The notes: generated by a model from the sequence alone, not told the origin. Positions 37,301 to 55,880 are shown, counted from the first letter of the stretch. The stretch: DNA of 64,000 bases from an uncultured Planctomycetota bacterium (GCA_963823665.1 CAWGMQ010000005.1:416001-480000), one strand, 5' to 3'. Numbers and translations are program-made.

Positions 37301-40300
37301 CTCGACGTGGGCGACCTCTCGGCCGTGGGTGCCACGAACATCGTCGTGACGGGCAAGGCGCACATCCCGAAAGATCCCAATGAGGTCGTCGTCGAGCCGC
37401 CAGCGATGGGCGCGCCGGACAATCTCGATGTCATATCGGACGGCGGGCTGGACATCGGCGACACGGCGACCGATACGACTTACCTGGTCACGGGGTTCGT
37501 GACCCAGGACGACGTGCGGATCAAGCTCAATGGCGGCGGCTCCGAAACCGTCGACGACCTGGACATGCTCGGGGATTACGGGCTGATCTTCGACGGTTCG
37601 GACCGGTCGAGCGGCGCCAACACGCTCAACGTTCAGCTCGCCACGCCCGGCTTCGTGGCGACGATGGCCACCGAGTCAGTCGGTGATCCGCAGCTCCAGG
37701 ACGCCAACGGCCTGCTATCCTTCCACGGCTCGATCTCGACCGACCACATGAACGTTGAAGACGAGGTGCCGCTCGGTACGCCGGGCGATCTCACCGATAC
37801 ATTCGACATCGACGACTCGGCCCTCCAGGGCACGCTCGACCTGGTCGGCACCAAGTGGACCCCGGTGCCAGTCGCCGACACGTTCGAGGTCACCAACACG
37901 CCTGTAACCGGCCTGACGACCGATCTCACCGGCGGCACGGGGTCCAATGTCTTTGACATCGTTCACGGTGGACTCAATATCCTTGACGGTGGAATCAACA
38001 GGGGCATCATCGTCTCGGGCGGGAGCGGCAGCAACGAGCTCGTCCTCGACCGTAGCCGGTCGTCGGGCGCGGCGCCCGACAGTGTCACGCTCGCCACGCC
38101 GGACAATAATATGACCTCTCCCGCCGGGCACGTTCAAGTCACCGGAACGTCGACGTCGTTCATGGCGTCCAACGTTTATAACATTCAAGTCAACATGTAT
38201 GGCGGCACGCTCTACGCCGGCGACTTGAGCCCGGCCGGCAAGTTCGCCGTCGACGTGACGGGCGAGGCCAGCCCTGACCGCGACGCCAACCACGTCGTCA
38301 TCGAGCCGCCGCTGGGGAATGCGCGAGACAACGTCACGGTTCTTGCAGGGATGGCGATCGAGGACACGGCCACCAGTACAAATTATAACTTTTACCAACT
38401 GGCCGCGCAGGACGACGTGCGGATCATGCTCAATGGGAGCGGTACCGAGACTGTCAATAACATCGAGACCCTCGGCCCCAGCACGCTGATCTTCGACGGT
38501 TCGGCACGCTCCCTCGGCGGCAACACGCTCAGTGTGCCGCTTACAGAGGCTTTCCTCGCGAACTTCGTCATCGACGCGGCCGGAGATCCGGAGCTCCAGG
38601 AGAACGGCGGCGGGCTGGTGGCCTTCCATGGGTCGATTCCAACCGACCAGTGGAACATTACCGACAGAGCGACCTCGAACAATTTTGGCAACACCATCAA
38701 CGTCGAAGATGACTCGGCCCTCGAGGGGACGCTCGAGCTCGTGGGCGGACCGGATAAAGATGAGTTCAACGTCTACAACACCGCCGCCGCCAACCTCACG
38801 ACCGAGCTGGTCGGGGGCGCGGGACAGACTGACTTCACCATTCAACACGGCGGCGTCAATGAGAACATCGCGGTCATCGGGGGTACGGGCGTCAACGACC
38901 TGTTCCTCGACCGTCCCCAGACATCGGCCACTGCGCCCGATTTCCTGGCCCTCTCCAGCGGCAGCACGAGCCCGGGCGGGCCGGCCAACGTCGTGGATAT
39001 CACCGGTACCGAGACATCGATCACGGCGTCAGGCGTCTTCGCCTTCGGCATCGACATGTACGGAGGAACGCTCGACGCGGGCGACCTGGGGCCGCTGGGG
39101 TCGCAAGCCACCTACCTGGTGCACGCCTTGGCGAGTCCTGCGTGCGACCCGAATCACGTCATCATCGAGCCGCCGCTCGACAATGCCCCGGACAACATCA
39201 CGGTCCTCTCCGGACCGATCGTCGCGGACACGGCCACCGACACAGATTACTTCTTCGAGGATCTGGCGGCGCAGGACGACATTCGGATCAAGCTCAACGG
39301 CGGTGGTTCCGAGACCGTCGACGACCTCCCGACCGTCGGTCCTGAAAACCTGATCTTCGACGGTTCGAATCGGTCGGGCGGGAGCAACACGCTCAACGTG
39401 CCGATCGCGCTCTCCAGCTTCGCGCTTTCGATGGCCACCGACGCGGCGGGCGATCCCCAGCTCAAGGATGGCGGCGTGGTCTCGTTCCACGGGTCGACGC
39501 CGGCTGACGTGCTCACCGTCAGCGACCAGGTCACGAGCGGAGGCCCCCGTACCTTCGACAGCTTCCAGATCGACGACTCGGCGCTCGAGGGAACGCTCAA
39601 GCTCGTGGGCAACCAATCGACGTCGGACGAGATCAAGAACTCGTTCACGGTGACGTCGACACCCAGTGCGAATCTCGCCACCGACCTGATCGGCGGGACG
39701 GGCCCGAACTACTTCGACATCGTGCACGACGCGGTCAACCAGGGCATCAACGTGACCGGCGGCCCCAGCCTCAATAGCCTGGTCGTGGACAGGGACGCGC
39801 CGTCGGCGCCGGCTCCCGACAGCCTTGCGATCACGGCAATCCAGTCCGAGCCGGATCCGGAGTTGCAGGTCACCGGCACGACGACATCCGTGATCGCGAC
39901 CGGCCTCTTCACCGTCGACGCAAACATGAACGGCGGCACGCTCGACGTGGGCGGCCTGAGTCTGCTCGGCGGCGATTCCCTCAGTGTAACCGGCAGCCCC
40001 AGCGCCCCGACCGACGTCACCCTCGACGCGACTTCGCTTGTCGGGTACTTCCTCACGCTTGGCGACGGCCCGGAGAGTTTTGAGTCGTTCCAGTGGAAAC
40101 TGCCCCGTGGCGTCCAATCGGCGATCGACCTCCAGCAGAACTCGGTCGAATTGACGCTCGAGCTCCCGACGAGCGAATCCAACAATCTGGTCAACCTGAC
40201 CGTCAACGATACCGGGCTTCTTCCCACGACCATCGACGAAGGTCCGGTACCAACCATCGTGGCCGGCACGACCGGGTCCCTGACCTTCCAGAGCAACGAT

Positions 40301-42696
40301 CCCGCCTCGATCACGATCGGCCTTGCGGGCAGCGTGCAAGGACTGAACGGCGCGGTAAACGTTCTGACGACGACCCCGACCAGCTCGCCCTCCAGCCTGG
40401 TCGTCGACGATTCGGCCGATACCAAAGCAGAATCGGTTGACCTCGCGCCCGCGGCGGGCGGCCTGTACTCGATCACCGGCCTGGCGCCGGTGCCGATCGC
40501 CTTCACCGCGGCGCAGTATGCCCTCACTCTCAACGGGGGACCGGCCGGTAACACGTTTGACGTGGTGGACACCGAGGCCGGGGCTGGGCTCACCGTTAAC
40601 GCCGGCTCGGGCAGCGACGCGATCACCGCCCAGGTCGCGGGCACCGGCGGATTCGCCCCGCTGACCGTCAACGGCGGGCTCGGCCTCAACTCGCTCGCTG
40701 TCATCGGCAGCAACGACAATCCGGTCTTCACCGATACGCCGGCCGCCGGCCAGCCCGGTGCCGGCACGTTCACGGTGAGCTACCCGCCGAACGGTCCGAC
40801 GCGCACCATTCAGTACACCGGCATCAGCACCATCGTCAGCCCCACGACGACGGGCCTGGTCTCCTCGTCGGCGAACGACACATCCACCCTGGGCCAGTCG
40901 GTCACGTTCACGGCCACGGTGGGTGCGGACTACGCCGGCGCGGGAACGCCAGCCGGCACCGTTACCTTCATGGACGGCTCCTCGACGCTAGCGACCAAGC
41001 CGCTGACCGGCGGCGTGGCTACTTACACGACCACCACCCTGAGCGTGGGGAGCCATTCGATCACCGCGACGTTTGTTCCATCCGGCAGCTTCCAGACGAG
41101 CACTTCCCCCAAAGTCGTGCAGCTCGTCGTCACACCCCTTCAGATCTCGTCGATCGCCCCCGTGGCTCCCAATCCGCGGAACACGGCCGTCTCGACGATC
41201 AACGTCACCTTCAACGCGCCGATCAACACCAGTAGCCTGACCGCCGGCGCCCTGACGTTGACTGACGATGGAACGACGCTCTCGGTCGCCGGAGTCTCGC
41301 TGTCATTGATCTCCGGCACGACCTACGCAATCAACGGTCTGGCCGGACTAACTACGACTGACGGGAATTTTACGCTGACCGTCAACGGCGCCGACTTCCA
41401 GGAACAAACGACCGGTATGCCCGGCTCGGGAGCCCTCTCGGTTTCCTGGCTGATGGATACGACGCCGCCTACCAGCCATGTCAATCCGCTACCGGCGCGA
41501 GACCGGCCTCAGCTTCCCCGTGTCGGCCGCCGGCTCCGACCTTGGCGCCGCGCCCTCGGGGATAGCCTCGTACGCGATCTACGTCTCGAGCAACGGGGGC
41601 TCATGGTCGCAGTGGACGACGGTGCCGGCCTCCGACCCCACCGGTACCTTCACTGGCCAGAGCAACACGACCTACGCCTTTTACAGCATCGCAACCGACA
41701 ACGCCGGCAACACCGAGAGCAAGCAGCCGACGATCGAGGCCAGCACCTACGTTCCCAACCTGACCCCGCCGATCACATCGGTCGACGGGACCACCGGGGC
41801 CAACCCGACCACCGTCAACACCAGCACGGGAACCGTCACGCTCGACATCGCCGCCACTGACCCGGGTGGTGGTGTCATCACCTACTTCGAAGTCTTCGTC
41901 TCGGTCGATGGCGGGGCGTATACGATGATCAACGGAGCAGCGATCCCGGCGGGGCCGCCCAACAGCCAGGGGATCACGGATGCGACCATTCCGTACCAGG
42001 GCGTGACGGACGGCAAGAGCCATACGTACCAGTTCTACAGCATCGGCTTCGACAGCGCGGGCAACGTGCAGTCGACAGCCTCCACTCCCAAGCTGACTCT
42101 GACCGAGACCTTCGCCCAGCCGTCCGCGCTGCAGGTGACAAACCTGATCGTGGAGGATGGCGCCGTCGAACGGTCGTACATCCGTTACCTCGACATCGGC
42201 TTCAACGAATCGGACGGCCAGTCGGGTGGCGAGCTCACCGAGCTCGTCAACTCCCTCGGCTCCTCATCGCCCGCGATTCAGCTCTACAAGTACGATCTCA
42301 GCGACGACGCCTCGAGCAAGACGTCGGTTCTCGCTTTCGGGAGTGTCCGTCGAGTTGATCGACCACGCCATCGAGCTCGACTTCGGGGCGAGTGGCCTCG
42401 GTGGCAGCCCGAGCACGACGACCGCGGACGGTTATTACGAACTGGATATCAAGCTTCCGAACGGAGCGACGGCCGTTCATCACTTCTACCGGCTCCTGGG
42501 CGACGTCACCGGCGATGGTGTGGTGGACAACAACGACCTGAACGCGATCGCCGCCGAGATCAATCTGTCGAACCCAATGGGCTTCGCACCCATCGGCGCG
42601 GACATAAACGGCGACGGCACGGTCTCAGTGGTCGACCTCACGCTGGCGACCCGGGCCAAGGGGCACAAGCTGAATTCGGGACTGCCGCTGGGATGA
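31393..42696 (+). CDS. Giant surface/adhesin-like protein of about 3,770 codons (in-frame TAG at 33568; frameshifts near 35010, 41500, 42335)
   Basis: HELEDRTLLS signal, autotransporter-like beta-helix strands, five to six ~290-aa repeats, an Ig-like domain (GQSVTFTATV...GTVTFMDG...GSHSITATF), FN3-like segments and a dockerin-like C-terminus (GDVTGDGVVDNND...DINGDGTVSVVD). Confidence 0.8.
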
Positions 42697-42769: not shown

Positions 42770-42940
42770 AATAAGTTGCCAATGATCCCGTAATACCCAT
42801 AGTGGCCCCGCAGTTTTTGCGTGAGCTTTTGGTATTGCTCCTTGACCGGAACGTGCCGGTTTTTACGACACCATTCCGACAGCGCTGCAAGCGCTCGCTT
42901 GAGTCGGCTCTTCGCTGTCTTCCGTTTTGACCACCCACAC
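42770..42940 (-). pseudogene. Group II intron RT/maturase (domain X) fragment, copy 1
   Basis: Translates to WVVK/RKTAKSRLKRALAALSEWCRKNRHVPVKEQYQKLTQKLRGHYGYYGIIGN. Confidence 0.8.
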
Positions 42941-42943
42941 GGA

Positions 42944-43091
42944 GATGTCAGACATCGACGTTTTGCCGAGCGTCGGGCACTCGCCGTCTGCGTGTTCGAA
43001 ATGATCAGAGGCCGTGGTTTTGCGCCGAAACTGTGAGGTCGCGAATGAACGGATGTGGGGGCCGTGAGACAAAGGATGGGTGTCTGGAATC
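42944..43091 (+). mobile_element. 148-bp MITE/REPIN-like element, copy A
   Basis: GATGTCAGACATCG...GATGGGTGTCTGGAATC; same length as and highly similar to the copy at 46611. Confidence 0.8.
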
Positions 43092-43131
43092 CTCATGCGA
43101 CCGGCGCCTTAGCCTGCAATCGTGTCGGGAA

Positions 43132-45033
43132 TTACACCTTCCCGGTCAACGCGTACGACAAGGCCTCGGTCTTGAGCACGTAGCCTGCCGCCTGGATCTG
43201 AAACAGTCGCGCGTAGATTTTGCCGAGCCGCATCAGGTCGTCGTGCGTTCCCTGTTCTGCCACGATCCCATCCTTGAGGACGCAAATCCGATCCGCCTTC
43301 CTCACCGTTGAGAAACGGTGCGAGATGAGGATCACCGTCTTGTCCCTGGGCAGCGCTTCCAGCTCCTCGAAGATGCGCGCTTCGGCCTCCGCGTCGATGG
43401 ACGCCGTGGGCTCATCGAGGATCAGCAGCCCGGGATCGCGGTAGAACGACCGGGCCAGAGCCAGCTTCTGGAGCTGGCCCTTGGAGGGGTCGATGCCGTC
43501 GGGAAATTCGCGCCCCACCATCTGCTCGTACTGTCCCGCCCATTCCGCGATGAATCCCTCCGCGCCGCTCCGCCGGGCGGCCTGACGAACTTTGTCCATG
43601 TCCGCCGCCGGACTGCCGTTGCGCCGGCCCATTGCGATCACTTCCTTGACGAGGAAGTGGTAGTCGGCGTAGTCCTGAAACAGCACACTCATCTGGTGGT
43701 GCCAGCTATCCAGGTTCAGGTCGCGGAGGTCGTGCCCATTTACCAGGATTCTGCCCTCGGTTGGGTCGTAAATGCGGCAAATGAGTTTTACGAGTGTCGT
43801 CTTTCCGGAGCCGTTCACGCCCACGAGCGCGACCTTCGCTCCCGAGGGGATGGCCAGCGACAGGTTTTTCAGGACCAGCTTGTCGGTTCCGGGATAAGCA
43901 AACGACACATTGTCGAGGACGATCTCTGGAGCTGCGCCCGCAGACAGCACGCGCGCATTCTGCGCGCGGGGGATGGCGGGCGGAGTGTCCATGACCTCAA
44001 ACAGGTTGGTGGCAAACAGGCTGTGCTGGTACTGATGGCCCAGGCTCAGGAAAAACCCCGAGAGGGCGTCTTGCAGCTCACGGATGGCTCCAATGACGAA
44101 GGCCATGGTGCCTACCGCCAAGGCGCCGGTCGCGACGGCATCGATGATCGACACGACGGCCACCGCGATGGCGATACCGGCGGCGGAAAGCGCACCCATC
44201 TGGTAGATCAGTTTCCGCCGCTCGTTCGCGCGGTGTTCCTCGTTGAAGGCATGCAGCAGGTCGCGCATGGCGGAGAGGAAGTACCGGACGTTCTGGAATA
44301 GCTTCAGCTCAATGAGATTTGAGAGACTGTGGAAATGGCGATGAAAGTCGGCATACCGCCGCCGCTTCTCGGCGCTAGAGTCGTGAATGCTCCAGACGCC
44401 ATAGCCGTATTTCGCTTCCAGAACGAACTTGGGAATCGCCGCCACCACGACGAGGCCGAAGATCCGCCAATCGTAGAGAGCGAGCACGGTCGCCGCCACG
44501 CTGACGCCCAGCAGGCTTTGAAGGTTGTAGAACTGTTGCTCGAGCAGGGCGACCATCGGGTAGATCCCTTGACCTTCCGCCTTGGTGAGGAGGTCCTGGA
44601 ACTTGGGGCTCTCGTAGGTGGCGACGTCGATTTCGCCCTTTCGTTCGACCAGCTTCAACTCGAAGTGCTCGTCCATCAACAGGTGCATTTTGCGATCGAG
44701 GAAGCCTTTCCAGGCGTAGAGAGCATCGGGAAGGACGGTGGCGCCGACCGCCAGGGTAGCGAGCACTGACACGCTGCCGGTGAGCCCCTGGCCCGCGGTC
44801 CGAACCAATTCATTGATCAGCAAGGCGATGATGCCCGACTGCACGAACGGAACGCCTGCGCTCAGCAGAGACAGGAGAGTCTCGGCGATGACGATGCCAG
44901 GTTGTTGCCGCCAGGTTGCCGCCAGCAGTCGACCGGCGCTTACCAGCACAAGCTTGACAGCAGACAGAGGCAGTCTCATGAATTCCTTCAGAGTCGTGTC
45001 CTTGAGAAGGGAAGCGTGTTGGTCCGACACCAT
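43132..45033 (-). CDS. ABC exporter, fused permease and ATP-binding domains
   Basis: N-terminal TM helices; GVNGSGKTT, variant signature PSKGQ, LILDEPTA, ISHRFST. Confidence 0.92.
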   Translation of the reverse strand: MVSDQHASLLKDTTLKEFMRLPLSAVKLVLVSAGRLLAATWRQQPGIVIAETLLSLLSAGVPFVQSGIIALLINELVRTAGQGLTGSVSVLATLAVGATVLPDALYAWKGFLDRKMHLLMDEHFELKLVERKGEIDVATYESPKFQDLLTKAEGQGIYPMVALLEQQFYNLQSLLGVSVAATVLALYDWRIFGLVVVAAIPKFVLEAKYGYGVWSIHDSSAEKRRRYADFHRHFHSLSNLIELKLFQNVRYFLSAMRDLLHAFNEEHRANERRKLIYQMGALSAAGIAIAVAVVSIIDAVATGALAVGTMAFVIGAIRELQDALSGFFLSLGHQYQHSLFATNLFEVMDTPPAIPRAQNARVLSAGAAPEIVLDNVSFAYPGTDKLVLKNLSLAIPSGAKVALVGVNGSGKTTLVKLICRIYDPTEGRILVNGHDLRDLNLDSWHHQMSVLFQDYADYHFLVKEVIAMGRRNGSPAADMDKVRQAARRSGAEGFIAEWAGQYEQMVGREFPDGIDPSKGQLQKLALARSFYRDPGLLILDEPTASIDAEAEARIFEELEALPRDKTVILISHRFSTVRKADRICVLKDGIVAEQGTHDDLMRLGKIYARLFQIQAAGYVLKTEALSYALTGKV

Positions 45034-45244
45034 GTTGTTGCCAGCCGCCTACCACCAGAAACTCCAGGCCACCACGGTGCCGAAACGATGACACTGATGC
45101 CACGAGTTGGAGTTCGCGAACTTGGTGAGAGGTTTTTCGCCTCGCGGGCGAAATCCTCGCGGCAAAATCATTGCTGCCCAGTGAAATCCCGTGAGGATCA
45201 CGACGGGTATGATGTCCGCGATCAGCAATCCGCGCTACCGGTAA

Positions 45245-45426
45245 GACGCAAAGACGCCCACCTTCTTAGGAGCGTCGGAGACGCGCATTCTTTTTGTTCG
45301 AAGCGACCAGCGGCCGTGCCGTGGTTCTCCGCCGAGCGTGTGGGCCGCGAATGCATGGATGGGGGGGCGGAGAAAAACGATGGGTGTCTGGATTCCTTGT
45401 GAGACAAAGGATGGGTGTCTGGAATC
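45245..45426 (+). mobile_element. Diverged copy D of the 148-bp element plus an extra right end
   Basis: GACGCAAAGACGCCCACC...GTTCGAAGCGACCAG...CGCGAATGCATGGATG...GATGGGTGTCTGGATTC, then GTGAGACAAAGGATGGGTGTCTGGAATC. Confidence 0.7.
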
Positions 45427-45496
45427 CTCAGCCGTGGACAGGAGAGCGGAGGGTGATCAGGATTCGGGAATCCCACAGACGCCGAGGGTGCCTCCC

Positions 45497-45892
45497 ATGT
45501 TCCCCTTACGCTTCCGCCTACGATTTCTGATGATTGTCGTTATTCCGATCATTGCGATGGGAACCTGGACCTATCGAGTTCTCCCGAAATGCCCGGTCCA
45601 CGGCAGTGTCATGCGGCGAGGGAGCGTGCCGATCAATTACGGGCTAGTTATGTTCAGTGCCTCTGGACTTCAATATAGGGAGGCGAGAGCCTCGTTGTTC
45701 CCCAATTGTGACTGTGCCGTGGGGGGAGGCTGCGTTGTTCAGCCGGACCAGATCAGGCAGAAGAACATCTGTAGAACCTGCAACGCTACCCGAGCTGCCT
45801 GGCGTTTAAGTCAGACCAAACCCACTCCCACTGTCTATACGCCCTTGGCTGGTTCCACCTCCGGCAGTTCTTCGACTACCGACTCGAATTGA
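45497..45892 (+). CDS. Small Cys-rich membrane-anchored hypothetical protein
   Basis: MFPLRFRLRFLMIVV N-terminal anchor; CPVH...YGL...FPNC...GGCVV...CRTC, possible metal-binding residues. Confidence 0.65.
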   Translation: MFPLRFRLRFLMIVVIPIIAMGTWTYRVLPKCPVHGSVMRRGSVPINYGLVMFSASGLQYREARASLFPNCDCAVGGGCVVQPDQIRQKNICRTCNATRAAWRLSQTKPTPTVYTPLAGSTSGSSSTTDSN

Positions 45893-45977
45893 CGGCCAAG
45901 GATTGTCGCCGAGTATGATCAAGCTCTGAGATTCGACGGCGTGGAGCCGCTTAGGCGACCCCGAGGGACCGATCAGG

Positions 45978-46595
45978 ATGATGCTCCTACTGAAGCTCGC
46001 CGCCCTCGGCAGCATCCTGCTGGCCCTGATGAGTACGTACCCCGGCGTGCTCAACGACTTTGCCTCGATTGCGATACTTTTTTGCCCGATTTGGATTCCG
46101 GCAGTCTGCTTCGTCGGCTGGATGGCGTTGCTCAGTAACTCCCGAGCCGCTCAGAAGCCGGTAAAGCCCGAACTCCTGGCCGATGTCGAGATCGGCGGAA
46201 AATCACCTGTTTCCCACCGGCGCTGGTTCGTCGTCTCGATTGCGATCTTGATCGTCAACTTCGTTCTGATCCTGAGTGGCATCCCGACAAAGCTCGCTTT
46301 TGTTCTGTCACGGCCAGCATTCCAACGATACGCTGCCACTGCACCAGTCTCCGATTCCGATGGCGAGGCTGTGGGACGCCTCTTCGGCGTCTACTACGTA
46401 GATCTCTACGCCGCTGATCCCCGTGGCGGAGTTTACTTCCGAACCCATGCCGGGCCGGACGGGATCGGGCCGGACACGATGAGCTACGGCTTTGTCTACC
46501 GACCGAACCCGAAGGGGACGCCCTTCGGCAATTCAGGATACCGGTATTCGCACATCGTCGGGGACTGGTACTGTTTCTCGGCATCGAACGACTAG
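45978..46595 (+). CDS. Hypothetical membrane protein
   Basis: Three hydrophobic segments, then PTKLAFVLSRPAFQRYA and a beta-rich soluble domain ending HIVGDWYCFSASND. Confidence 0.7.
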   Translation: MMLLLKLAALGSILLALMSTYPGVLNDFASIAILFCPIWIPAVCFVGWMALLSNSRAAQKPVKPELLADVEIGGKSPVSHRRWFVVSIAILIVNFVLILSGIPTKLAFVLSRPAFQRYAATAPVSDSDGEAVGRLFGVYYVDLYAADPRGGVYFRTHAGPDGIGPDTMSYGFVYRPNPKGTPFGNSGYRYSHIVGDWYCFSASND

Positions 46596-46610
46596 CAGCA
46601 AAGAAGCGGT

Positions 46611-46758
46611 GATGCCAGACATCCACCTTTTGCCGAACGTCGGACACTCGCGTTCAGCGTGTTCGAAATGACCAGAGGCCGTGGTTTTGCGCCGAAACTG
46701 CGAGGTCGCGAATGAATGGATGTGGGGGCCGTGAGACAAAGGATGGGTGTCTGGAATC
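46611..46758 (+). mobile_element. 148-bp MITE/REPIN-like element, copy B
   Basis: Terminal inverted repeats GATGCCAGACATCCA / TGGGTGTCTGGAATC (13 of 15 match); begins 16 bp after the upstream stop. Confidence 0.85.
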
Positions 46759-46806
46759 CACCCTTGCCGTGGGATCTCGAGTCTTTGTCGGTGAGATGGA
46801 ATCGCA

Positions 46807-47208
46807 TCAGGACTTCAGCCAGTCCTCCAAATGCAAGTTGGGAACGTTTTGAAAGTCGGCCGTGTTATGGGTCACCAGGGTCAGGTCGTGCGCGAGGGCG
46901 ACCGAGGCGATGAGCATATCGATGGGCGTCATGGTTACTCCGATGCCCTGCAAGCTGACCCTGAGCAGACCAAACTGTTCCGCACTGGCCTCATCGAAGC
47001 CCATCACTTCGACATCGTAGTCCAAGAAGGTCGTGATGGCGGACAGGAACTCGCGAGGATCGGGGCGCATGTAGGCCCACACGTAGAGCTCCGCCATGAC
47101 CAGGGTTGGGACGAAAATCCGGCCCGTGTACTGAACGAACCGATGCATCAGGCCAGCTGGTCGGCGAATGGGGGCCGAGCAAATGTCGGTGTCAAGCAAG
47201 AAGGTCAT
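46807..47208 (-). CDS. vapC: VapC PIN-domain toxin
   Basis: FLLDTDIC, AELY, DMLIASVAL..DLTLVTHNTADF. Confidence 0.92.
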   Translation of the reverse strand: MTFLLDTDICSAPIRRPAGLMHRFVQYTGRIFVPTLVMAELYVWAYMRPDPREFLSAITTFLDYDVEVMGFDEASAEQFGLLRVSLQGIGVTMTPIDMLIASVALAHDLTLVTHNTADFQNVPNLHLEDWLKS

Positions 47209-47459
47209 TCGGGGAGCTCACGGAATACGCCTTGTTTTCGTTCCAGGATGATTTTCTCCAGTTCAAGATCGACCTCGGGCGGTAGATGGGCAAGCATCCC
47301 CGCCGCCGTTGGTCGCTGGCCAGGGCGTGACGCAATTGCGCCTGGCGCAGCCCGGCGTGGCCGCAGGATCACGTCGATTTCCTCGCCGTCTGAAAGTCCC
47401 GGATTCTCCTTGAGCTCGATCGTATTACCACGAATGACTCCCTGAATAATGTGAGACAT
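47205..47459 (-). CDS. Putative antitoxin for VapC
   Basis: 84 aa, IQGVIRGNTIELKENPGLSDGEEIDV beta-rich N-terminus; ATGA overlap with vapC. Confidence 0.8.
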   Translation of the reverse strand: MSHIIQGVIRGNTIELKENPGLSDGEEIDVILRPRRAAPGAIASRPGQRPTAAGMLAHLPPEVDLELEKIILERKQGVFRELPE

Positions 47460-47584
47460 ATTCCAGTGACTCCTTGGTTCCAGCGGAAAGTTGATTCAGG
47501 TAATTCCAGCCACTTCGAGGCTTTGCGTTCAATGTGAATCCGCTCCGCGTTGCTAACGTCTTTTCGTCATTGCATGCCCCCGTT

Positions 47585-47655
47585 TGGGTTGTTGGTGAAT
47601 CTTCTTCATGATTGTATCCCATTCGGGGTCGTCAGCGAGGGCGCCGGATGAACCA
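47585..47655 (-). pseudogene. Possible C-terminal remnant of a paralogous antitoxin
   Basis: SGALADDPEWDTIMKKIHQQ resembles AGMLAHLPPEVDLELEKIILE of the neighbouring antitoxin. Confidence 0.4.
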
Positions 47656-47665
47656 TCCGCAGATA

Positions 47666-47747
47666 ATAGTGGCCCCGCAGTTTTTCCGTGAGCTTTTGGT
47701 ATTGCTCCTTGACCGGAACGTGCCGGTTCTTACGACACCATTCCGAC
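47666..47747 (-). pseudogene. Group II intron RT/maturase fragment, copy 2
   Basis: SEWCRKNRHVPVKEQYQKLTEKLRGHY; 80 of 82 nt identical to 42799-42880. Confidence 0.8.
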
Positions 47748-47996
47748 GTCACGGAGAAGGCTGAGAGCGGCTTGTACCAGTCGGCCAGCGAGGTCATCCG
47801 CGATGGGCTCAGGCTGATGAGGGAACGGGATGAGTTGCACCAAAGCAGGGTGGCCGAGCTTCGCCGAGACATCGCCATAGGCATTGACCAAGCCGAACGT
47901 GGGCAGGTGCAGCCTTTCAACGAGGAAGTCACAGCCCGCGTCAAGGCACGCGGGCGGAAACGCCTGGCCGCCAAAGACAGATCGGACTCGGTATGA
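47748..47996 (+). pseudogene. parD: 5'-truncated ParD-like (CopG/Arc/MetJ) antitoxin
   Basis: EKAESGLYQSASEVIRDGLRLM...LRRDIAIGIDQAERG; the native start is replaced by the intron fragment. Confidence 0.75.
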
Positions 47997-48040
47997 ATGA
48001 GCCGAGGCTCACCGAGCAAGCGGAGGCCTAGACGAGCATA
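47993..48040 (+). pseudogene. ParE-like toxin N-terminal stub
   Basis: ATGA-coupled MNEPRLTEQAEA* with LDE in the shifted frame, as in the ParE motif RLTxxAEADLDEI. Confidence 0.5.
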
Positions 48041-48274
48041 GAATGACTTCGCAGTTCTTTCTGAGAGGCCGAGCGAGGCGGGTGCCGGGACGAGGCGGAG
48101 ACCGGGACGCGATCAGTGAATGCAAAACTGTCCGCGTCCCGGTTTCACTCCCCCCGAAATTTCTGACGGCTGCAGACGATTCCAACGTATACTGAGGCAA
48201 GGCGGACACGCTGGTCCTTTCCGACCCTACCAAGATCATGCGCCATCCCGCGATGCGGAGCAAAGAAGGCAGCC

Positions 48275-48487
48275 ATGTCGACCGCTGAGATCATCCGTGC
48301 GGTTCGCGCACTCTCTCGCACCGAGAAATTCCAGATCGGGCAGACGTTGCTCGATGACCTGGCCAAAGAGGAACTGTCGGCGGCGGTCTTGGAAGGCCAT
48401 GTCTTTCCGATCTACACACCAGAATACGCCCCCGATGCCGCGGCCCAACTGGCCAAGGCCCTCACGGAGGAAGGGACCGGCCCTTGA
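48275..48487 (+). CDS. Small antitoxin-like hypothetical protein
   Basis: 70 aa, MSTAEIIRAVRALSRTEKFQI...PIYTPEYAPDAAAQL; coupled to the downstream pseudogene. Confidence 0.65.
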   Translation: MSTAEIIRAVRALSRTEKFQIGQTLLDDLAKEELSAAVLEGHVFPIYTPEYAPDAAAQLAKALTEEGTGP

Positions 48488-48710
48488 GCGTTGTCGAGCA
48501 GTTTCCGTACTGCGACAGGAACCCATCCTCCGGCGGGCTTTAGCAGTCGGGCAACTGTCGCCTGCGCGCTTCGCGCTAGCATGGGCCGATTCGGATCAGG
48601 TTCCGTTTCTTCTCGGACAATTCAACTTCTTCCAGGTGTTCGATGTCTGTTTTTTCCGCACGCGGAAAATGTTCGAGATCAGGCAACCGGGCGCGGCGAT
48701 TTCACCGTGA
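48484..48710 (+). pseudogene. Internally deleted partner gene (retropepsin-like family suspected)
   Basis: MSVVEQFPYCDRNPSSGGL* then, out of frame, VGQLSPARFALAWADSDQVPFLLGQFNFFQVFDVCF; the middle, including any D(T/S)G motif, is absent. Confidence 0.5.
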
Positions 48711-48738
48711 ACATTAATGGCTGGCAGAGCGATGGAAT

Positions 48739-48856
48739 GTCGGGCACTCGCCTTCTGCGCGTTCGAAATGACCAGAGGCCGTGGTTTTGCGCCCAAAGTG
48801 CGAGTCGCGAATGAATGGATGCGCGGGCAATGACAAAAGGATGGGTATCTGGATTC
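48739..48856 (+). mobile_element. Copy C of the 148-bp element (left end decayed)
   Basis: GTCGGGCACTCG...GTTCGAAATGACCAGAGGCCGTGGTTTTGCGCC...GGATGGGTATCTGGATTC. Confidence 0.8.
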
Positions 48857-48876
48857 CTCGTTCTTGCGGTTTGTGC

Positions 48877-48907
48877 TTGACTTATTATCCCAAAAAAGGG
48901 ATATTCT
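48877..48907 (+). promoter_or_regulatory. Sigma70-type promoter with an overlapping palindromic operator for the TA operon
   Basis: TTGACT-N17-GATATT; TATCCC-N6-GGGATA at 48886-48903; the ATG follows at 48912. Confidence 0.6.
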
Positions 48908-48911
48908 GCCG

Positions 48912-49322
48912 ATGGACGACCAGCCAGACTTCACGGACGACGAAACGGAAAAACCGAAGCCCAAACCGCTGAGGTGGATTGGGTCGTCAAAAGGCGACCT
49001 AAAGAGCTTTCCAGATGCAGTCCGCAAGCCTATGGGGCATGCCCTGTACCTGGCACAGATCAACCTGAAACCACCGAACGCCAAGCCGCTGCGGGGATTC
49101 GGCGGGGCGAGCACGCTGGAAGTCATTGAGGATCACGACGGCAGCACCTACCGGGCCGTCTATACGGTGAAGTTTCAAGACGTCGTATACGTGCTGCACG
49201 CCTTTCAAAAGAAATCCAAGAAAGGCATCGCCACGCCGCCGCACGACATTGAGTTGATCAAGAAGCGGTTGAGAGCGGCCGCCGAGCAGTACGCGAAACA
49301 GCAGAAGGATAAGAAGCCATGA
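48912..49322 (+). CDS. RelE/HigB-like toxin (Gp49/DUF891-like)
   Basis: KPLRWIGSSKGDLKSFP...AKPLRGFGG...TYRAVYTV...VYVLHAFQKKSKKG. Confidence 0.9.
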   Translation: MDDQPDFTDDETEKPKPKPLRWIGSSKGDLKSFPDAVRKPMGHALYLAQINLKPPNAKPLRGFGGASTLEVIEDHDGSTYRAVYTVKFQDVVYVLHAFQKKSKKGIATPPHDIELIKKRLRAAAEQYAKQQKDKKP

Positions 49323-49645
49323 GTAACGACACCACCATCCATGACGGCAGCGGCAACGTGTTCGCCGACCTCGGCATCAAGAATGCCGATGAGTATATGG
49401 CCAAATCCGAGCTGGCCGCCGAAATCCTGCGGATCGTCCAGCGCCGGCGTCTGACGCAGGCCGAAGCCGCCAAGCTGCTGGGCATCCGGCAGCCCAAGGT
49501 ATCCGATTTGCTTCGCGGCCGCCTCGACGGGTTTTCTACCGACCGGCTGCTTCGCTTCATTACCCGCCTGGGCTACGACGTGCAGATCAAGTTGTCCAAG
49601 GCACGCCCTCATACGCAGGGCCACATGGAAATCATCGCCGGCTAA
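49319..49645 (+). CDS. HigA-like XRE/HTH antitoxin
   Basis: SGNVFADLG, LTQAEAAKLLGIRQPKVSDL, FSTDRL; ATGA overlap, toxin-first order. Confidence 0.9.
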   Translation: MSNDTTIHDGSGNVFADLGIKNADEYMAKSELAAEILRIVQRRRLTQAEAAKLLGIRQPKVSDLLRGRLDGFSTDRLLRFITRLGYDVQIKLSKARPHTQGHMEIIAG

Positions 49646-49721
49646 ATCCATGCGGCCGGTAGCGGGTCGCTCAAGGCGACGTGCTCCGCCCCTCAGTGGC
49701 GAAGCCCACATGTTTATGCGT

Positions 49722-49775
49722 TTTTTTCTACGAGTGAAAGGAGAGACGTACTTTCGCGGAGCGAAAGGCGACACT
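49722..49775 (+). repeat. REP-like palindrome, family C
   Basis: CTTTCGC-GGA-GCGAAAG hairpin followed by GCGACACT, preceded by a degenerate copy (TTTCTACGAGTGAAAG). Confidence 0.5.
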
Positions 49776-49804
49776 GAAAGTCAGCGCGATACTGATGGTC
49801 CTCA

Positions 49805-49920
49805 CCGCGGCGGACGGCGACGGTTTCGTTGCTGATGCCTTCATCCGTGAATTTGAAGTGGCGCGCGGGCGCGGTGAATGGGGAGTTCAGAATCGGGTTT
49901 TCGATCAGTGCGTCGGGCGT
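49805..49920 (-). pseudogene. N-terminal stub of a type III restriction (Res)-like helicase-nuclease
   Basis: (ACG)PDALIENPILNSPFTAPARHFKFTDEGISNETVAVRR matches the IENPILNSPF..P.RH start of BPTD_3080-like Res proteins; the start codon reads ACG. Confidence 0.65.
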
Positions 49921-50534
49921 CGGGCAACCCTTGACGATCGTTGGAACGGAGCGGCGGGCTTCGCCGGCTCGGGAGTTTCTGCTCCGTGCGGAGAGCGGGA
50001 ACTCTATACTATCGAAGGCGGCGATCTCTATTCCTTTGTCCACTTCCGTCAGGAATTGTTCGGTCGTGAGTGCTCAACGGGCATCGCTGATGGGAGTTGT
50101 CCGGCGTTGTCAAGGCGGGCTGCGGTGGTTCATTCTTGCCCCGTACCGCGAGACCTTGAGATCGATGCGATGGCGCATCGGGTGGTTGTGCGATCGTCGG
50201 AATCGGAGCCGAATTGCTGGGTTCCGTATTTTGAGTAACAGGATTATTTTGCCTTCGAGGCATATATGTTCTATATTATGGAGTTATTCTGGACGACCAG
50301 GGATGCTGCGTCGATCGGCCCGAGTGTTCGTGCCTCGGCGGGGCGTCGGTGGGTAAACTTCCCCAGCGGAGGCGAAATGGTTAACGAAGGCACGTTTTAA
50401 GGTCACACCCGCGATGGACGTAATGCTATATGGGATAGTCTGTTGAACCGACACTATGGGGAGAGTCGACGGAGCGTATGCGCTCGAACGGTCTCGAGGT
50501 GTGTTCGTGCGTTTGAAGCTGGTCCGGGGAAATC

Positions 50535-50697
50535 GTCAGGCTGAAGCCTGACCTACTTGGGAGGCGTGATCATTGCGTTTTCGGGAGATCGATATCTGGG
50601 GAATTGTCAGGCTAAAGCCTGACCTACTTCGGAGCGGCATTCTTGCGTTTTCGGGGGACGGGCATCAGAGGAATTGTCAGGCTGAAGCCTGTCCTAC
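50535..50697 (-). repeat. Three tandem GTAG-type REPs (family B) in ~70-bp units
   Basis: GTAG-GTCAGGC-TTCA-GCCTGAC variants at 50535-50556, 50606-50627 and 50676-50697; the linkers are homologous to each other. Confidence 0.85.
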
Positions 50698-50748
50698 TTC
50701 GGTGGAATTGGTGGGCTTTCGCGCCACAGACAGGGTCAAGGTGATGCG

Positions 50749-53700
50749 ATGGGTGTGCAACAGGGTGCGGCGGTTGCTGGAATGAATGATCAGCGGGCTT
50801 CGAGCTACAATGTCTCACGCTACAATGCGATTAAACATGGGCTCACGGCGAAGACGCCGGTCTTGCCTGGTGAAGATCCGGCGGAGCTTCAGGCGAAGAT
50901 CAACGCGTATAAAACGGGTCAGCAGACTCGAACTGAAGCCGAGGGGGATCTGGCCACGCTGGCGGCGATGGCTTACTGGCGGGCCATGCGGGCGAATCGT
51001 CTCGAAGTTAATCGCATGACGGGCGCCATGGTGGCGCGATCGCGGGCGGAGGCGGTGCGCGAGACAACGGACGCGGAGGCGCTCGGGGACCGCTTGCTCT
51101 TTGACCGCAGGGGGCCGTCGCAACTCTATCCGTCGCGGGACTATGAGCACAAGGAGCCCCGAACCTCGTCGTCGGGGGAGCCCGGTGACCCTGATAAGCC
51201 GGTCATTTTGGTCCGCCAGCTCGAGGCGACTCGCGCCGGGCGGCAATGGCTGCGAGAGCGGCTGGGCGAAGTGCGGGAGCCGATCGATTCGGGAGAGGGG
51301 TGGGTGTCGTGCGAGAAATTCAAAGCTATCCGGTTGCTGGGCAAGCAGCCGCTTGATGCGCTTTGGGATTCAGAGGTCGCCCGGCTGTTCCTCGCGAGCT
51401 ACGCCATCCGGCGGGACTTGCCGTCGGCCTTCCATGAGCTTCGGTGCGAGATCCACTATGATCGCGTCAAGCGTCATGAGAGCCAGCTTTCGCGCAAGGA
51501 GCAACGCGCGATCACGCCGCCGAATGCGGCGGCCGCACGGGACGTGCTGCTTGCGATCATTGACCAGGCGATTGAGCGGCTGTGGAAGCTCGACGCCGAG
51601 TACGCGGAGGGCGACGAGATTCTCGAGCTGACCGGGTCCAACGTGGTGAGCGATGCGGAGGCGAAGCACGTCGCGCAGGTTCAGCGCCATCTGGAGAGCT
51701 CGAACCGGCTGGCGATTCGGAACCTCGACACCATCAAGAGATGGCACCGCTGGGAAGAGGAAGGGTGGTACAAGGTTCGCCGGGATCGAGAACGGAGAAA
51801 GGAGGAAGCGCGACGCGGGCGTCCGCTCGATCAGCGGTTTGTGCTCGACCAGCATGGGACCGTTCGCGATGCCTGGGGATATGAAGGCGACCTCGAGGCG
51901 GGGCTGGCTCGCTGGAAGGCGGAGCGCGGGCCCCAACCTTGTGAGGATCCGTATTACCGTGCGCCTGGCGCTGGCGGCGGGAGCTATGCGGGTGGCACGC
52001 CGAATGACGTGAGCGCGAAGCCTGCACACTCGCAGATCCAGGGCCAAACGGAAGCGATCACCGATGGGGCGTGCGAGACGGCCGCGCGGAATGGCAATGC
52101 TCAGGGAGCGCCGGGGACTCGCCGGCCGGATGCGGTTGCCGATGATGTTGCGGTGAATCAGGACGCCGACTCCGCGGCGGAAATGCGGGATGGGGCCGCG
52201 GATTCGGGGCAGGCTGGGGTGAGCGATTTCGTTCCCGTAATCCTTACGGGACATGGGCCCGCGACGAATATACAAAACGAAATCGACGGACTGGGGATGG
52301 ATGACGATGGGGTGCTGGAGGAGGCGGGTGATGGCGTGGTCGGCGGTGATGCGTCGGGTGCGCGTGAGGCAGGGCGAACTGGGGAGGACGATGGCGGGAC
52401 CTGCGCTTGTGCAGACGGCTGGGGGCAAGAGGAGACCTACGGTCGCGCGGACGGAGGGGTCAGAGACCCGCGCCGAACTGAGAGTGGGGACGGCGAGGGG
52501 AAAGAGGAGACCTGCGGTCCAACGGACGGCGGCGACCCTTCGGGTGCCCGAGACCCGCGCCGAACTTGGGAGGGCGCCGCGGCCGGGGCGGAAATCGGGG
52601 ATGGGGCCGCGGATTTGGGGCAAGCTGGGCCGAGCGATTTCGTTCCCTTAACCCTTACAGAACAAGAGCCCGCGACGAATATACAAAACGAAATCGACGG
52701 GCTGGGGATGAATGACGATGGGGTGCTGGAGGAGGCGGGTGATCGCGTGGTCGGCGGTGATGCGTCGGGTGCGCGTGAGGCAGGGCGAACTGGGGAGGAC
52801 GATGGCGGGACCTGCGCTTGTGCAGACGGCTGGGGGCAAGAGGAGACCTACGGTCGCGCGGACGGAGGGGTCAGAGACCCGCGCCGAACTGAGAGTGGGG
52901 ACGGCGAGGGGAAAGAGGAGACCTGCGGTCCAACGGACGGCGGCGACCCTTCGGGTGCCCGAGACCCGCGCCGAACTTGGGAGGGCGCCGCGGCCGGGGC
53001 GGAAATCGGGGATGGGGCCGCGGATTTGGGGCAAGCTGGGCCGAGCGATTTCGTTCCCTTAACCCTTACAGAACAAGAGCCCGCGACGAATATACAAAAC
53101 GAAATCGACGGGCTGGGGATGGATGACGGTGGGGTGGCGGAGGAAGCGGGTGATCGCGCGGTTGGAAGGGAGGATTTGGGTGCGGGTGAGGCGGATTGCG
53201 ATTTGCACAACTCGGCGTTTTCTGTTGCGCAACCGTATTGTGATGGCGGCCGCCGGGACGGACCCCCCCTGGCCCCCCCTTTTCAAGGGGGGGAAAGCTG
53301 GCGCAACATTCCCGCTGGGAAATCTCCGCTCCGTCCAGTGCATATTTTCAACAGCCCAGCCGGAGACTCGCGTCGAACGGTGAGCGATTTCGTTCCCTTA
53401 ACCCTAACGGGACAAGAGCCCGCGACGAATATACAAAACGAAATTGTGGGCGAGGAAATCGGGCCGGCATTTCGCGAATCGCAGGCCGAGGTGGCGGGGG
53501 ACGGGGACCGTGATGCAAGCGAAACAAGCCCGCAGACGAAGGGCGGTGGCGACGATCCACCGGCTTCTTCGGGAGAGAAGCGTTGTGTTGAGCCGCGGCG
53601 CGTGAGCGAACCGCTTTCGAAGCGGGAGAGACGGCGGCGGCGACGGGAAATGTCGATCAAGGAGCGTCAGGGGCGGCGCGGGGCGATGCAGAGGAAAGCC

Positions 53701-53760
53701 GATGCGCCGCTTGAAGAGGTGCTCGATCGTGTTGAGGGCCCGTTGCAATCGTCAGGCTGA
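50749..53760 (+). CDS. Hypothetical 'NAxKHGL' family protein with a repeat-expanded low-complexity tail
   Basis: SRYNAIKHGLTAKTPVLPGEDP N-terminus, helical core, four DFVP...TNIQNEI motifs. The start may be ATG 50782; the stop lies in a degenerate REP. Confidence 0.7.
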   Translation: MGVQQGAAVAGMNDQRASSYNVSRYNAIKHGLTAKTPVLPGEDPAELQAKINAYKTGQQTRTEAEGDLATLAAMAYWRAMRANRLEVNRMTGAMVARSRAEAVRETTDAEALGDRLLFDRRGPSQLYPSRDYEHKEPRTSSSGEPGDPDKPVILVRQLEATRAGRQWLRERLGEVREPIDSGEGWVSCEKFKAIRLLGKQPLDALWDSEVARLFLASYAIRRDLPSAFHELRCEIHYDRVKRHESQLSRKEQRAITPPNAAAARDVLLAIIDQAIERLWKLDAEYAEGDEILELTGSNVVSDAEAKHVAQVQRHLESSNRLAIRNLDTIKRWHRWEEEGWYKVRRDRERRKEEARRGRPLDQRFVLDQHGTVRDAWGYEGDLEAGLARWKAERGPQPCEDPYYRAPGAGGGSYAGGTPNDVSAKPAHSQIQGQTEAITDGACETAARNGNAQGAPGTRRPDAVADDVAVNQDADSAAEMRDGAADSGQAGVSDFVPVILTGHGPATNIQNEIDGLGMDDDGVLEEAGDGVVGGDASGAREAGRTGEDDGGTCACADGWGQEETYGRADGGVRDPRRTESGDGEGKEETCGPTDGGDPSGARDPRRTWEGAAAGAEIGDGAADLGQAGPSDFVPLTLTEQEPATNIQNEIDGLGMNDDGVLEEAGDRVVGGDASGAREAGRTGEDDGGTCACADGWGQEETYGRADGGVRDPRRTESGDGEGKEETCGPTDGGDPSGARDPRRTWEGAAAGAEIGDGAADLGQAGPSDFVPLTLTEQEPATNIQNEIDGLGMDDGGVAEEAGDRAVGREDLGAGEADCDLHNSAFSVAQPYCDGGRRDGPPLAPPFQGGESWRNIPAGKSPLRPVHIFNSPAGDSRRTVSDFVPLTLTGQEPATNIQNEIVGEEIGPAFRESQAEVAGDGDRDASETSPQTKGGGDDPPASSGEKRCVEPRRVSEPLSKRERRRRRREMSIKERQGRRGAMQRKADAPLEEVLDRVEGPLQSSG
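52170..53160 (+). repeat. 411-bp tandem duplication (about 2.4 units, 137 codons each)
   Basis: GCGACGAATATACAAAACG recurs at 52261, 52672 and 53083 with near-identical intervening sequence. Confidence 0.9.
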
Positions 53761-53830
53761 TGCCTGGAGACCGGAGGCCGAGATCGCGCTGGATGGGGCG
53801 GCGAGTCGATACACGCTCGAGATTCAGAAT

Positions 53831-54386: not shown

Positions 54387-55880
54387 TTGATTGATCGGGA
54401 TGCGTTTCGTGGATTGCCGGCGGTGGGTGCGTTGATCGAGCACGAGGTGTTGGAGTGCGCGGTGCGCACCCGCGGGCGGGCTGCTGTTGTTCGGGCGGTG
54501 CGGGCGGCGATTGAGGAGGCGCGCGAAGGGTTGCGCGCGGGGCGGCGGATCGCCGGGGATCTGCAGAGCCTGGCGGGGCGATCGATTCAGATCCTGGAGA
54601 GGGAGCGGGCGAGTATCCGGCCGGTGATCAACGCGACGGGCGTGTTGCTGCACACCGGGCTCGGAAGGGCGCCGCTGGCGCGTGAAGCGATCGAGGCGGT
54701 GGTTGCCGTCGCACGGGGTTACTGCAACCTGGAACTCGACCTCGAAGACGGCGAGCGCGGCCGGCGCACCACGGGAATCGAGCGACTGATTCGCGAATTG
54801 ACGGGGGCCGAGGCAGCGACGGCCGTGAACAACAACGCCGGAGCGACCGTGCTGGTACTCAAAGCTCTGGCGGCGGGGCGAGAGGTGATTGTGTCGCGCG
54901 GGGAGCTCGTCGAAATCGGTGGGAGCTTCCGACTGCCGGAGATTCTGGAGGCTTCCGGAGCAAAGCTTCGCGAGGTGGGCACAACCAACAAGACGCGGCT
55001 GACGGACTACGAGCGCGCAATAGGCCCCGAGACGGCGGCGATTCTGCGGGTGCACCGGAGCAATTTCGAGATCGTTGGATTCACCGAGGCGCCGGAGTTA
55101 CGTGCGCTCGTGCGGCTGGCCCACGATCGGGGGATCTGGGCGATCGACGACATTGGCTCGGGAGCGATCGATCCCGACACGCTTCCTCCGCCGGCCGCTG
55201 ACGAGCCAACGGCCGCCGGGAGCATCAGGGCCGGGGCGGACGTTGTGCTGTTCTCGGGTGACAAGCTGCTGGGCGGGCCCCAGTGCGGCGTGATCGCCGG
55301 CACGAAGCGCGCGATCGAAAAGATCGAGTCGGATCCTCTCATGCGAGCGCTGCGGCTCGACAAGATGGTGCTGGCCGCGCTCGAGGCGACGTTGCGGCTG
55401 GCGCTCGACCCGGAGCGAGCGGCGAGGGAGATTCCGCTGTGGTCGATGGCGGCGGTGCCGGTGGATGTTCTTGCGAGTCGTGCGGCCAGTTTGGCCCGAG
55501 TATTGTGTGATCGGTTTGGCTATCGCGCAGAGTGCGTGCCGTCGGATTCGTTCCTGGGGGGCGGGAGTGCGCCGATACGGGTGATTCCATCGGCGGCCGT
55601 GGCGATTTCGGCGCCGTTTCCGGCTGGCGCTCAGTCGGAAGCGGGGCTGGCGATGGCGCTTCGGGGCGGCGATCCGCCGGTGATTGCGCGGGTTCAGAAG
55701 GGGGCTGTGTTACTCGACCTGCGGACGGTCCCGAATGAGTGTGAGGCAGAGCTTCTCGACGCGCTTGGGAAAGTCTGTCATGATCGGATGGGCGCGGAGG
55801 CTGGACGTGGCACCGGCGATGACGGTGAGGGCTTGAGGGACGTCGGGACGAAGGCTGACCTACTGGAATCGTCAGGCTGA
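54387..55880 (+). CDS. selA: L-seryl-tRNA(Sec) selenium transferase
   Basis: VINATGVLLHTGLGRAPL, VNNNAGA, SRGELVEIGGSFR, EVGTTNKT, FSGDKLLGGPQ (PLP lysine), RALRLDK. Confidence 0.95.
   Translation: MIDRDAFRGLPAVGALIEHEVLECAVRTRGRAAVVRAVRAAIEEAREGLRAGRRIAGDLQSLAGRSIQILERERASIRPVINATGVLLHTGLGRAPLAREAIEAVVAVARGYCNLELDLEDGERGRRTTGIERLIRELTGAEAATAVNNNAGATVLVLKALAAGREVIVSRGELVEIGGSFRLPEILEASGAKLREVGTTNKTRLTDYERAIGPETAAILRVHRSNFEIVGFTEAPELRALVRLAHDRGIWAIDDIGSGAIDPDTLPPPAADEPTAAGSIRAGADVVLFSGDKLLGGPQCGVIAGTKRAIEKIESDPLMRALRLDKMVLAALEATLRLALDPERAAREIPLWSMAAVPVDVLASRAASLARVLCDRFGYRAECVPSDSFLGGGSAPIRVIPSAAVAISAPFPAGAQSEAGLAMALRGGDPPVIARVQKGAVLLDLRTVPNECEAELLDALGKVCHDRMGAEAGRGTGDDGEGLRDVGTKADLLESSG

Follow-up and report, generated by a model that had tools for sequence, protein, structure and literature searches.

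Co-oriented miniature elements with long-Y1 transposon ends probably build integron-like gene arrays in a planctomycete genome

To our knowledge, all characterised small Y1 enzymes (IS608, ISDra2, TnpA-REP) read DNA hairpins and guide tetranucleotides. For subclass 2.3 of the TnpA-Y1 enzymes, the available sections of the published description give no identifiable flanks resembling repetitive extragenic palindromes (REP) and report no mechanism (Quentin, Siguier, Chandler, Fichant 2018; 10.1101/279083 = PMC6006769). The TIRYT genes and their TIRtrons (Di Nocera et al. 2013, PMC3733652) have been equated with subclass 2.1 and, according to the available parts of that account, have dimers or clusters of their terminal inverted repeats (TIRs) elsewhere in the genome. 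The locus examined here lies in a 64-kb stretch of DNA from an uncultured Planctomycetota bacterium (G000:C5:416001-480000, hereafter the window, meaning the whole stretch analysed), part of a genome of 16.5 Mb in 12 contigs that is 92% complete (G000). In this window, four co-oriented copies of a 149-150-bp repeat, the element, stand between modules of accessory genes and give the region the look of an integron cassette array. Comparison of sequences among genomes makes it probable that the repeat is a non-coding miniature with the ends of long-Y1 transposons, and that Y1-driven one-ended joining stacks units of cargo plus element. Foreign accessory DNA is joined exactly at those ends, so the integron look of the arrays is likely the work of the enzyme through one-ended joining and not of true cassette recombination.

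Element ends and the joins they form

Each end of the element carries a core (RTGGGTGTCT outward, AGACACCCAY inward), the two cores of a copy spanning 135 nt, and conservation extends 7 nt outside each core (to core+7), with a pyrimidine bias following at +8 and +9. All four copies in the window are on the plus strand. Copies 1 (42943-43092) and 3 (46610-46759) are full length at 150 bp and 92% identical to each other; copy 2 (45245-45396, or to 45427 with its tip repeat) belongs to a subtype with a 5-nt insertion, and copy 4 (about 48734-48857) lacks the left inverted repeat and covers profile positions 28-153. A preliminary description of the window had given the unit as 148 bp, which we correct to 149-150 bp, and its terminal match of 13/15 holds for copy 3. 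The fifth right end that it placed near 31190 is real: a solo right end in array-like orientation occupies 31186-31225 (plus strand), with 10-bp tandem repeats of the tip to 31245. Adjoining this solo end is a 536-aa open reading frame (ORF) made of 70-74 aa repeats (29389-30999), and a related ORF occurs near other ends (L037). The co-oriented repeats are far beyond chance, a DNA search of G000 having returned 43 matches (40 of 85 candidates scored) and a 13-nt end pattern 44, compared with 0 for the reversed control.

At copy 1, a homolog breaks 1 nt past core+7 on the left and homologs break 2 nt past it on the right. The left end cuts a fragment of a group II intron reverse transcriptase/maturase ORF (42773-42941, minus strand; its DNA is matched at 95% by an intron remnant with RVT_1 in G001, L221) and the right end joins an ATP-binding cassette (ABC) exporter module, so that copy 1 joins two unrelated DNAs. 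The 42773-42941 fragment had also been considered as the end of an insertion sequence, an assignment rejected in favour of the intron reverse transcriptase. Across the family, an element-free homolog of the flank was found for 26 of 194 termini, 16 of which break 0-2 nt past core+7. None of these 26 informative ends has a clean empty site, three matches to the other side being tandem duplications. The preliminary description had set its reading against one of scattered copies with ordinary target-site duplications (TSDs); what we found are co-oriented clusters and no TSD among 57 copies (offsets 5-10, lengths 2-9), this set comprising ordinary ends after exclusion of 9 copies without a placeable core and of intron-type ends. 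In the same scan, 2-nt duplications occurred in at most 7 of the 57, and those of 4 nt or more in 0-1, with one 5-nt case.

Tandem duplications of 8-197 nt ending at the boundary are present at 116 of 334 distinct termini (miniatures and autonomous copies taken together) versus 9 of 600 random positions, and a pyrimidine lies next to the boundary at 302 of the 334. Copy 2 provides an example in its 31-bp tandem repeat at 45397-45427. Larger duplications of cargo plus element, such as one of 1152 bp in genome G230, obey the same boundary rule, and head-to-tail tandem copies of the element exist. The junctions are one-sided, the far end being arbitrary and often within genes, and some miniatures are nested in Y1 genes or truncate them.

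Group II introns are found by Rfam beside many element copies, and in 12 introns both exon junctions fall exactly after the core, which serves group II introns as a homing site. At nine different flanks, five of them with one mismatch, intron 5' sequence continues for only 7-8 nt past the core before unrelated DNA begins; copy 2 is included, the outer 7 nt of its left end matching a group II intron 5' end. From these remnants we infer that the end was recut at the same distance after intron insertion, the cut position being apparently ruled by distance from the core, independently of the outer 7 bases or a hairpin. Intron DNA is present in 13 of 44 inter-element segments. Among the introns that home into the core are one of 732 bp that lacks an ORF and an intron-in-intron of 4.4 kb (G000:C11:551452-561160, C6:911026-916240, C3 and others; L031, L032, L034, L035, L039, L044, L195, L197); these start with TTGCG and end with CCCGGC, versus the usual AY end.

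The ABC module (43095-45244, minus strand, upstream region included; ORF 43132-45033, 633 aa, Pfam ABC_tran) provides the clearest view of cargo outside the array. It occurs at 94-96% DNA identity in 4 of 120 other family genomes, which represent four other genera. On its left, G008 and G411 have native DNA in common, and on its right G411, G415 and G230; in the window, both native flanks give way to other DNA at element ends, with breaks 2 nt and 0 nt past core+7. The junction between copy 2 and the module recurs in G008 and in a contig of sequencing run X3, and as G008 has this junction together with the native left flank, capture seems to have been stepwise. We also considered a module with fixed ends of its own and rejected it, native DNA continuing on both sides in further genomes.

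Comparison with G001, a second genome of the genus of G000, points in the same direction. Three segments shared by the two genomes consist of cargo plus element and end at the element's right end, and the modules of a single G001 array (C5:3.39-3.43 Mb) are spread over four G000 arrays. The preliminary description had proposed looking for differences exactly at element ends; of 54 breakpoints between the two genomes, 12 come within 12 nt of an end (chance about 1.3% each), some of these segments being Y1 remnants. Where G001 matches the selA side of the window, the stretches examined show no element within 247 kb. Toxin-antitoxin (TA) families are matched by 20 of 148 small ORFs within 1.5 kb of an element versus 9 of 150 distant ones (p 0.03, about twofold), the genes coming from a simple predictor, window ORFs being left out and the 150 controls being sampled from 344 small ORFs more than 4 kb away; without the loci fetched for higBA the figures are 18/145 and 6/138 (p 0.02). 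The enrichment of TA genes beside the copies, which the preliminary description had proposed to test, is present, if modest.

Copy counts are lower bounds, taken from stretches of G000 and G001 around known matches and not from whole-genome maps. With the profile, 65 copies at 58 sites were found in the G000 stretches and 43 copies at 37 sites in those of G001. Neighbours within 10 kb are co-oriented in 28 of 29 pairs in G000 and 17 of 19 in G001, and the local GC skew matches the majority orientation of a cluster in 28 of 36 cases (p 0.001, one tie excluded). Element DNA was found in 3 of the 41 relatives searched, G000 counted. Of 401 genomes of the class, 6 have an 18-nt end pattern, which is multi-copy only in G000, G001 and G230; named records with the element or the partner enzyme belong to Planctomycetota/Isosphaeraceae. 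In G230 the same ends surround other interiors, so that at least five interiors share these ends. Matches to the end pattern in viral contigs (12 loci) and metagenome contigs (14 loci) are single, have neither element interior nor Y1 gene, and were treated as chance.

A candidate partner enzyme

No match to the cognate transposase was found anywhere in the 64-kb window, in line with the preliminary description, which had seen no transposase there. Elsewhere in G000, the same ends bound elements of 1.7-1.9 kb that encode a HUH/Y1 protein of 390-415 aa. This clade, clade A, was located by clustering orphan ends; searches with PF01797 (G000, G001, G230, G374, G008) gave mostly short TIRYT-type genes, which are common in these genomes and have other ends, and missed it. 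Intact Y1 frames with both ends lie at G000:C8:1396272-1398114 and G000:C3:448682-450612. For 16 clade A genes that are nearly full length, 26 of the 32 sides have an outward-facing core (both sides in 10 genes), compared with 2 of 50 sides of 25 TIRYT-type control loci, and the four genes of a sister clade have a different core of their own on 7 of 8 sides and the clade A core on 0 of 8. Matches to the enzyme number 42 in G000, fragments and sister clade included. At one sister-clade locus (L061, G000:C10:187478-188850), the long Y1 gene directly adjoins a CRISPR-like array with 18 or more repeats.

The HUH and Y---NP motifs are invariant in the six aligned proteins (H72-L-H74 and Y185-x-D-L-N-P). 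Predicted secondary structure places insertions between beta1 and alphaA and between beta3 and alphaC, ahead of a long C-terminal tail, in a model confident only over about residues 15-185; its best fold matches are E. coli TnpA-REP (4ER8, E 1e-3) and then IS608 TnpA. As to a C-terminal DnaA_C/HTH domain, there is no precomputed Pfam domain on the 120 listed homologs, and the C-terminal model stays below a predicted local distance difference test (pLDDT) score of 50. The partner enzyme is most likely a TnpA-Y1 of subclass 2.3, an assignment made by comparing architecture and Alteromonadales relatives with the published description.

The Alteromonadales relatives are of about 325-360 aa, and 10 of 13 records from a plasmid collection belong to Pseudoalteromonas, Catenovulum, Saccharobesus or Shewanella. 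A related core, with tip repeats, is present on at least one side of four out of five gammaproteobacterial loci, and on a Saccharobesus plasmid TA genes are punctuated by co-oriented ends. At NZ_CP026605.1 (L297, locus 2600-4300), a RelE pair and the remnant upstream of brnA, next to a long Y1 gene and a group II intron, are set off by ends that belong to this core family and all point one way. Relatives of subclass 2.3 are very widespread (6296 among 8000 candidates scored), and in the literature found the subclass is without published ends or mechanism. We found no description of ends, miniatures or capture for it in that literature, most subscription papers and ISfinder lying outside coverage, and a literature search for the motif gave only unrelated primer matches. 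The enzyme that likely acts in trans, as the preliminary description had suggested, is of HUH type, the ends being shared with intact long-Y1 transposons, and is neither a REP-associated tyrosine transposase (RAYT) of REP type nor a recombinase.

Weighing the explanations

Several observations weigh against one-ended capture by a clade A enzyme. In G230 (L294, G230:C2:160175), which has no element end at that point, homology to the ABC module stops within 1 nt of the window's left junction; one-ended joining does not account for this, and the site may be a target hot spot. Breakpoints between G000 and G001 lie away from element ends in 42 of 54 cases, and 10 of the 26 junctions with element-free homologs either break further out (7) or are unplaceable (3). 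From copy 3 to copy 4 the DNA is patched together, with breaks (an intron reverse transcriptase fragment, internal deletions) that are not at element ends; of the earlier claim that the copies separate unrelated modules, the part concerning the ABC boundaries stands, these being element ends, while several other boundaries come from unrelated decay. No circles or excision joints were seen in four sequencing runs, all of them contigs of relatives with patchy cover, and the joints listed from these runs lie between element copies and can be repeat artefacts. A count of pyrimidine targets (48/53) takes in short duplications starting inside the terminal motif, the presence of a neighbour within 10 kb at 41 of 58 sites (about 4 expected) is inflated by the choice of stretches around matches, and agreement with skew drops to 26 of 36 (p 0.011) at fourfold sites, the sign of the skew flipping over short distances. 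As for the enzyme, its structure model is weak (mean pLDDT 52, fold E 1e-3), a sequence search of solved structures with it gave 0 matches, and NF047646 scores 46.8 against an 80-bit cut-off. The 149-bp interior is absent from every autonomous copy found, so that the cognate pairing is drawn from the shared core only.

One alternative is an ordered cassette platform, in which the Y1 enzyme would excise cargo and its downstream element as a circle and re-insert it preferentially at right ends, modules being swapped as in integrons. The shared segments ending at right ends, the dispersal of one G001 array over four in G000, the ABC module abutting the right end of copy 1, the head-to-tail tandem copies with their strong co-orientation and the twofold excess of TA genes would all suit such a platform. 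Nevertheless we hold it to be unlikely. Of 44 inter-element segments, only the one with the ABC module has a complete counterpart in other DNA, which comes without both elements; cargo lies in either direction, the far ends of junctions fall arbitrarily, in many cases inside genes, and the four runs with their patchy cover gave no circles. Of the gene-capture platform of the preliminary description, the coincidence of module boundaries with element ends is borne out for the ABC module; the junctions are one-sided, and no circle or reversible excision was seen in those runs. A similarly small chance attaches to ordinary insertions of a miniature inverted-repeat transposable element (MITE) into a hot spot that the cell can spare, with later loss of adjacent DNA and homologous recombination, the look of an array being a by-product. 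This account has the enzyme in common with one-ended joining and differs in denying capture, no cargo having been moved. TSDs are known to go missing when adjacent DNA is deleted or copies recombine with each other (PMC11708052, in the portion available), the region is full of other decay, and purging of inverted copies could leave co-orientation. It sits poorly with the lack of a clean empty site among the 26 informative ends, with tandem duplications that end at the outer boundary and not within the repeat, with the two unrelated DNAs joined by copy 1, and with an orientation that tracks skew across unlinked clusters.

Two further origins for the repeat deserve mention. Short TIRs are typical of DDE elements, and their presence here, with intron DNA in more than a quarter of the segments, might point to a MITE of a DDE transposase or to spread by a group II intron reverse transcriptase. 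We regard this as very improbable: the 57 copies lack TSDs, the coding partner of the clustered orphan ends is a Y1 (not every DDE family was searched for in the genome), gammaproteobacterial Y1 genes have these ends and tip repeats beside them too, and introns interrupt the end and then get cut off. More improbable still is a CALIN, an integrase-less integron array, whose attC sites would be of an unusual kind, in spite of the resemblance to attC arrays in co-oriented repeats, TA cargo and intron targeting. None of 18 matches to TIGR02249 in G000 is over the cut-off, the best reaching 112.6 of 265 bits, and attC cores (RYYYAAC/GTTRRRY) are present in 0 of 4 window copies, inside or within 10 nt, on both strands; on both counts, the preliminary description was right to call the array non-integron. 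Folding looks unremarkable in the window copies (z +0.8 to -1.6); over 8 folds of 4 copies z runs from +0.8 to -3.1, the pairing coming chiefly from the terminal repeat.

If one-ended joining is indeed at work, the clade A Y1 enzyme likely acts in trans on the 150-bp miniature. It would bind the core and nick at a fixed distance whatever the 7 outer bases, and the nicked end would join a target that usually starts with a pyrimidine, probably in DNA that is single-stranded at the replication fork; if skew is read in the usual way, the plus strand of the element would be on the lagging-strand template. A target just behind the end would yield a short tip duplication, one further back a duplication of cargo plus element, and one ahead a deletion of adjacent DNA, while a target on foreign DNA would be captured. 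Repeated rounds, probably aided by homologous recombination between copies, would stack units in one orientation, and TA pairs would persist partly by being resistant to loss. A much broader version is speculative and in our view rather doubtful: integrase-free gene stacking in both Planctomycetes and marine Gammaproteobacteria, in which subclass 2.3 Y1 enzymes and their miniatures would read a short core, make a ruler cut 7 nt outside it on fork DNA, insert cargo-plus-element circles at existing ends, and swap TA and accessory modules between loci and genera. The locus family offers testable substrates (core, predicted cut position, target preference and intact enzymes in the same genome), with the swapped outer 7 nt as a natural control. 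If one-ended capture is true, it would give accessory genes one more way, free of integrons, to be stacked and to pass between genera.

Modules of the window and comparison with described systems

The cargo labels given earlier (ABC, vapC, parD, higBA-like) agree with Pfam matches. Beyond the ABC module and copy 2 lies a module of two small ORFs (45428-46609, plus strand; ORFs 45497-45892 and 45978-46595), both of membrane type and with no Pfam or NCBIfam match; DNA homologs of the second occur at 73-77% in G409 and G350, and in a contig of run X3 the match to this module ends at 46606, 3 nt short of copy 3. The interval from copy 3 to copy 4 holds vapC (46807-47208, Pfam PIN) with a small upstream partner gene (together 46807-47459, minus strand), an intron reverse transcriptase fragment fused to a 5'-truncated parD and an internally deleted parE (47666-48154, plus strand; a ParD fragment in the Pfam search), and a pair of small genes that has lost about 210 bp internally (48156-48720, plus strand; 84-86% homologs in G321, G415, G215 and G000:C3). 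The second intron fragment (47666-47747) is 97.6% identical to 42799-42880, and an intact parDE, 98% identical, lies inside another element array at G000:C10:2568185-2568756. Past copy 4, a higBA-like pair (48864-49645, plus strand) matches Pfam Gp49 (Gp49/RelE-like toxin) and an HTH_37 antitoxin, and has a 92% partial copy beside another element at G000:C11:290357. The stub that follows, presumably of a restriction gene, has no Pfam match.

Other features of the window belong to different families. A separate REP-like hairpin family occurs at 50521-50704, 53737-53766 and 55857-55928, and an inverted repeat much like it flanks RAYT-like genes in G001 (L104) and G230 (L255). A 1003-aa ORF of no known family (50749-53760) contains 411-bp internal repeats and has many genomic relatives, one of them, at C11:693348, being 98% identical over 2 kb and lying beside another element array. 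At 48100-48150 there is a short inverted pair like the ends of a TIRYT family in G000 (compare L060, L194), partially repeated at 26158-26210. A fluoride riboswitch (RF01734) is located at 24599-24669, and a very large repeat-rich gene of secreted type with a terminal dockerin domain (31375-42696) is split across several frames, assembly errors and decay both being possible.

Set beside described systems, the enzyme resembles subclass 2.3 in its HUH and Y---NP motifs, beta1 and beta3 insertions, long C-terminal tail, multiple copies and Alteromonadales relatives, and, unlike that subclass as published, its genes are bounded by short conserved-core inverted ends and its non-coding derivatives, with at least five interiors, form arrays (PMC6006769, as far as the available text of that description goes). 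With TIRtrons it shares a Y1 gene between terminal inverted repeats and repeat dimers elsewhere; it differs from TIRYT in enzyme clade and in its core, RTGGGTGTCT and not GGGGWSAS, and cargo capture is not among the TIRYT features described in the available portion of that work (PMC3733652). REPINs, like the miniature, are short non-autonomous inverted-repeat doublets moved in trans by a Y1 and often in tandem (Bertels et al. 2017, PMC5581495, in the part available), whereas RAYTs, by the same part of that source, are mostly single-copy with GTAG/GTGG-footed hairpins; the enzyme here is multi-copy, and the right end and the intron-derived ends are unable to form a hairpin. Integron and CALIN arrays also have co-oriented repeats between accessory or TA modules, into which group II introns home, but the present arrays have no IntI, no attC cores, cargo on both strands and unfixed far ends. 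DDE-type MITEs, too, are short, non-coding and multi-copy with terminal inverted repeats, though no TSD is seen here. The likeness to IS91/ISCR lies in HUH chemistry, the lack of TSDs and one precise end with a variable far end carrying adjacent DNA; those elements have distinct oriIS and terIS and a larger rolling-circle transposase, in place of symmetric inverted ends, both precise, and a small-Y1 fold (PMC13181058, sections available). The genomic footprints, as read from sequence, fit one-ended co-mobilisation of the IS91 type. The system would work like IS91/ISCR one-ended capture, with the layout of TIRtrons and REPINs, and is a member of none of these groups.

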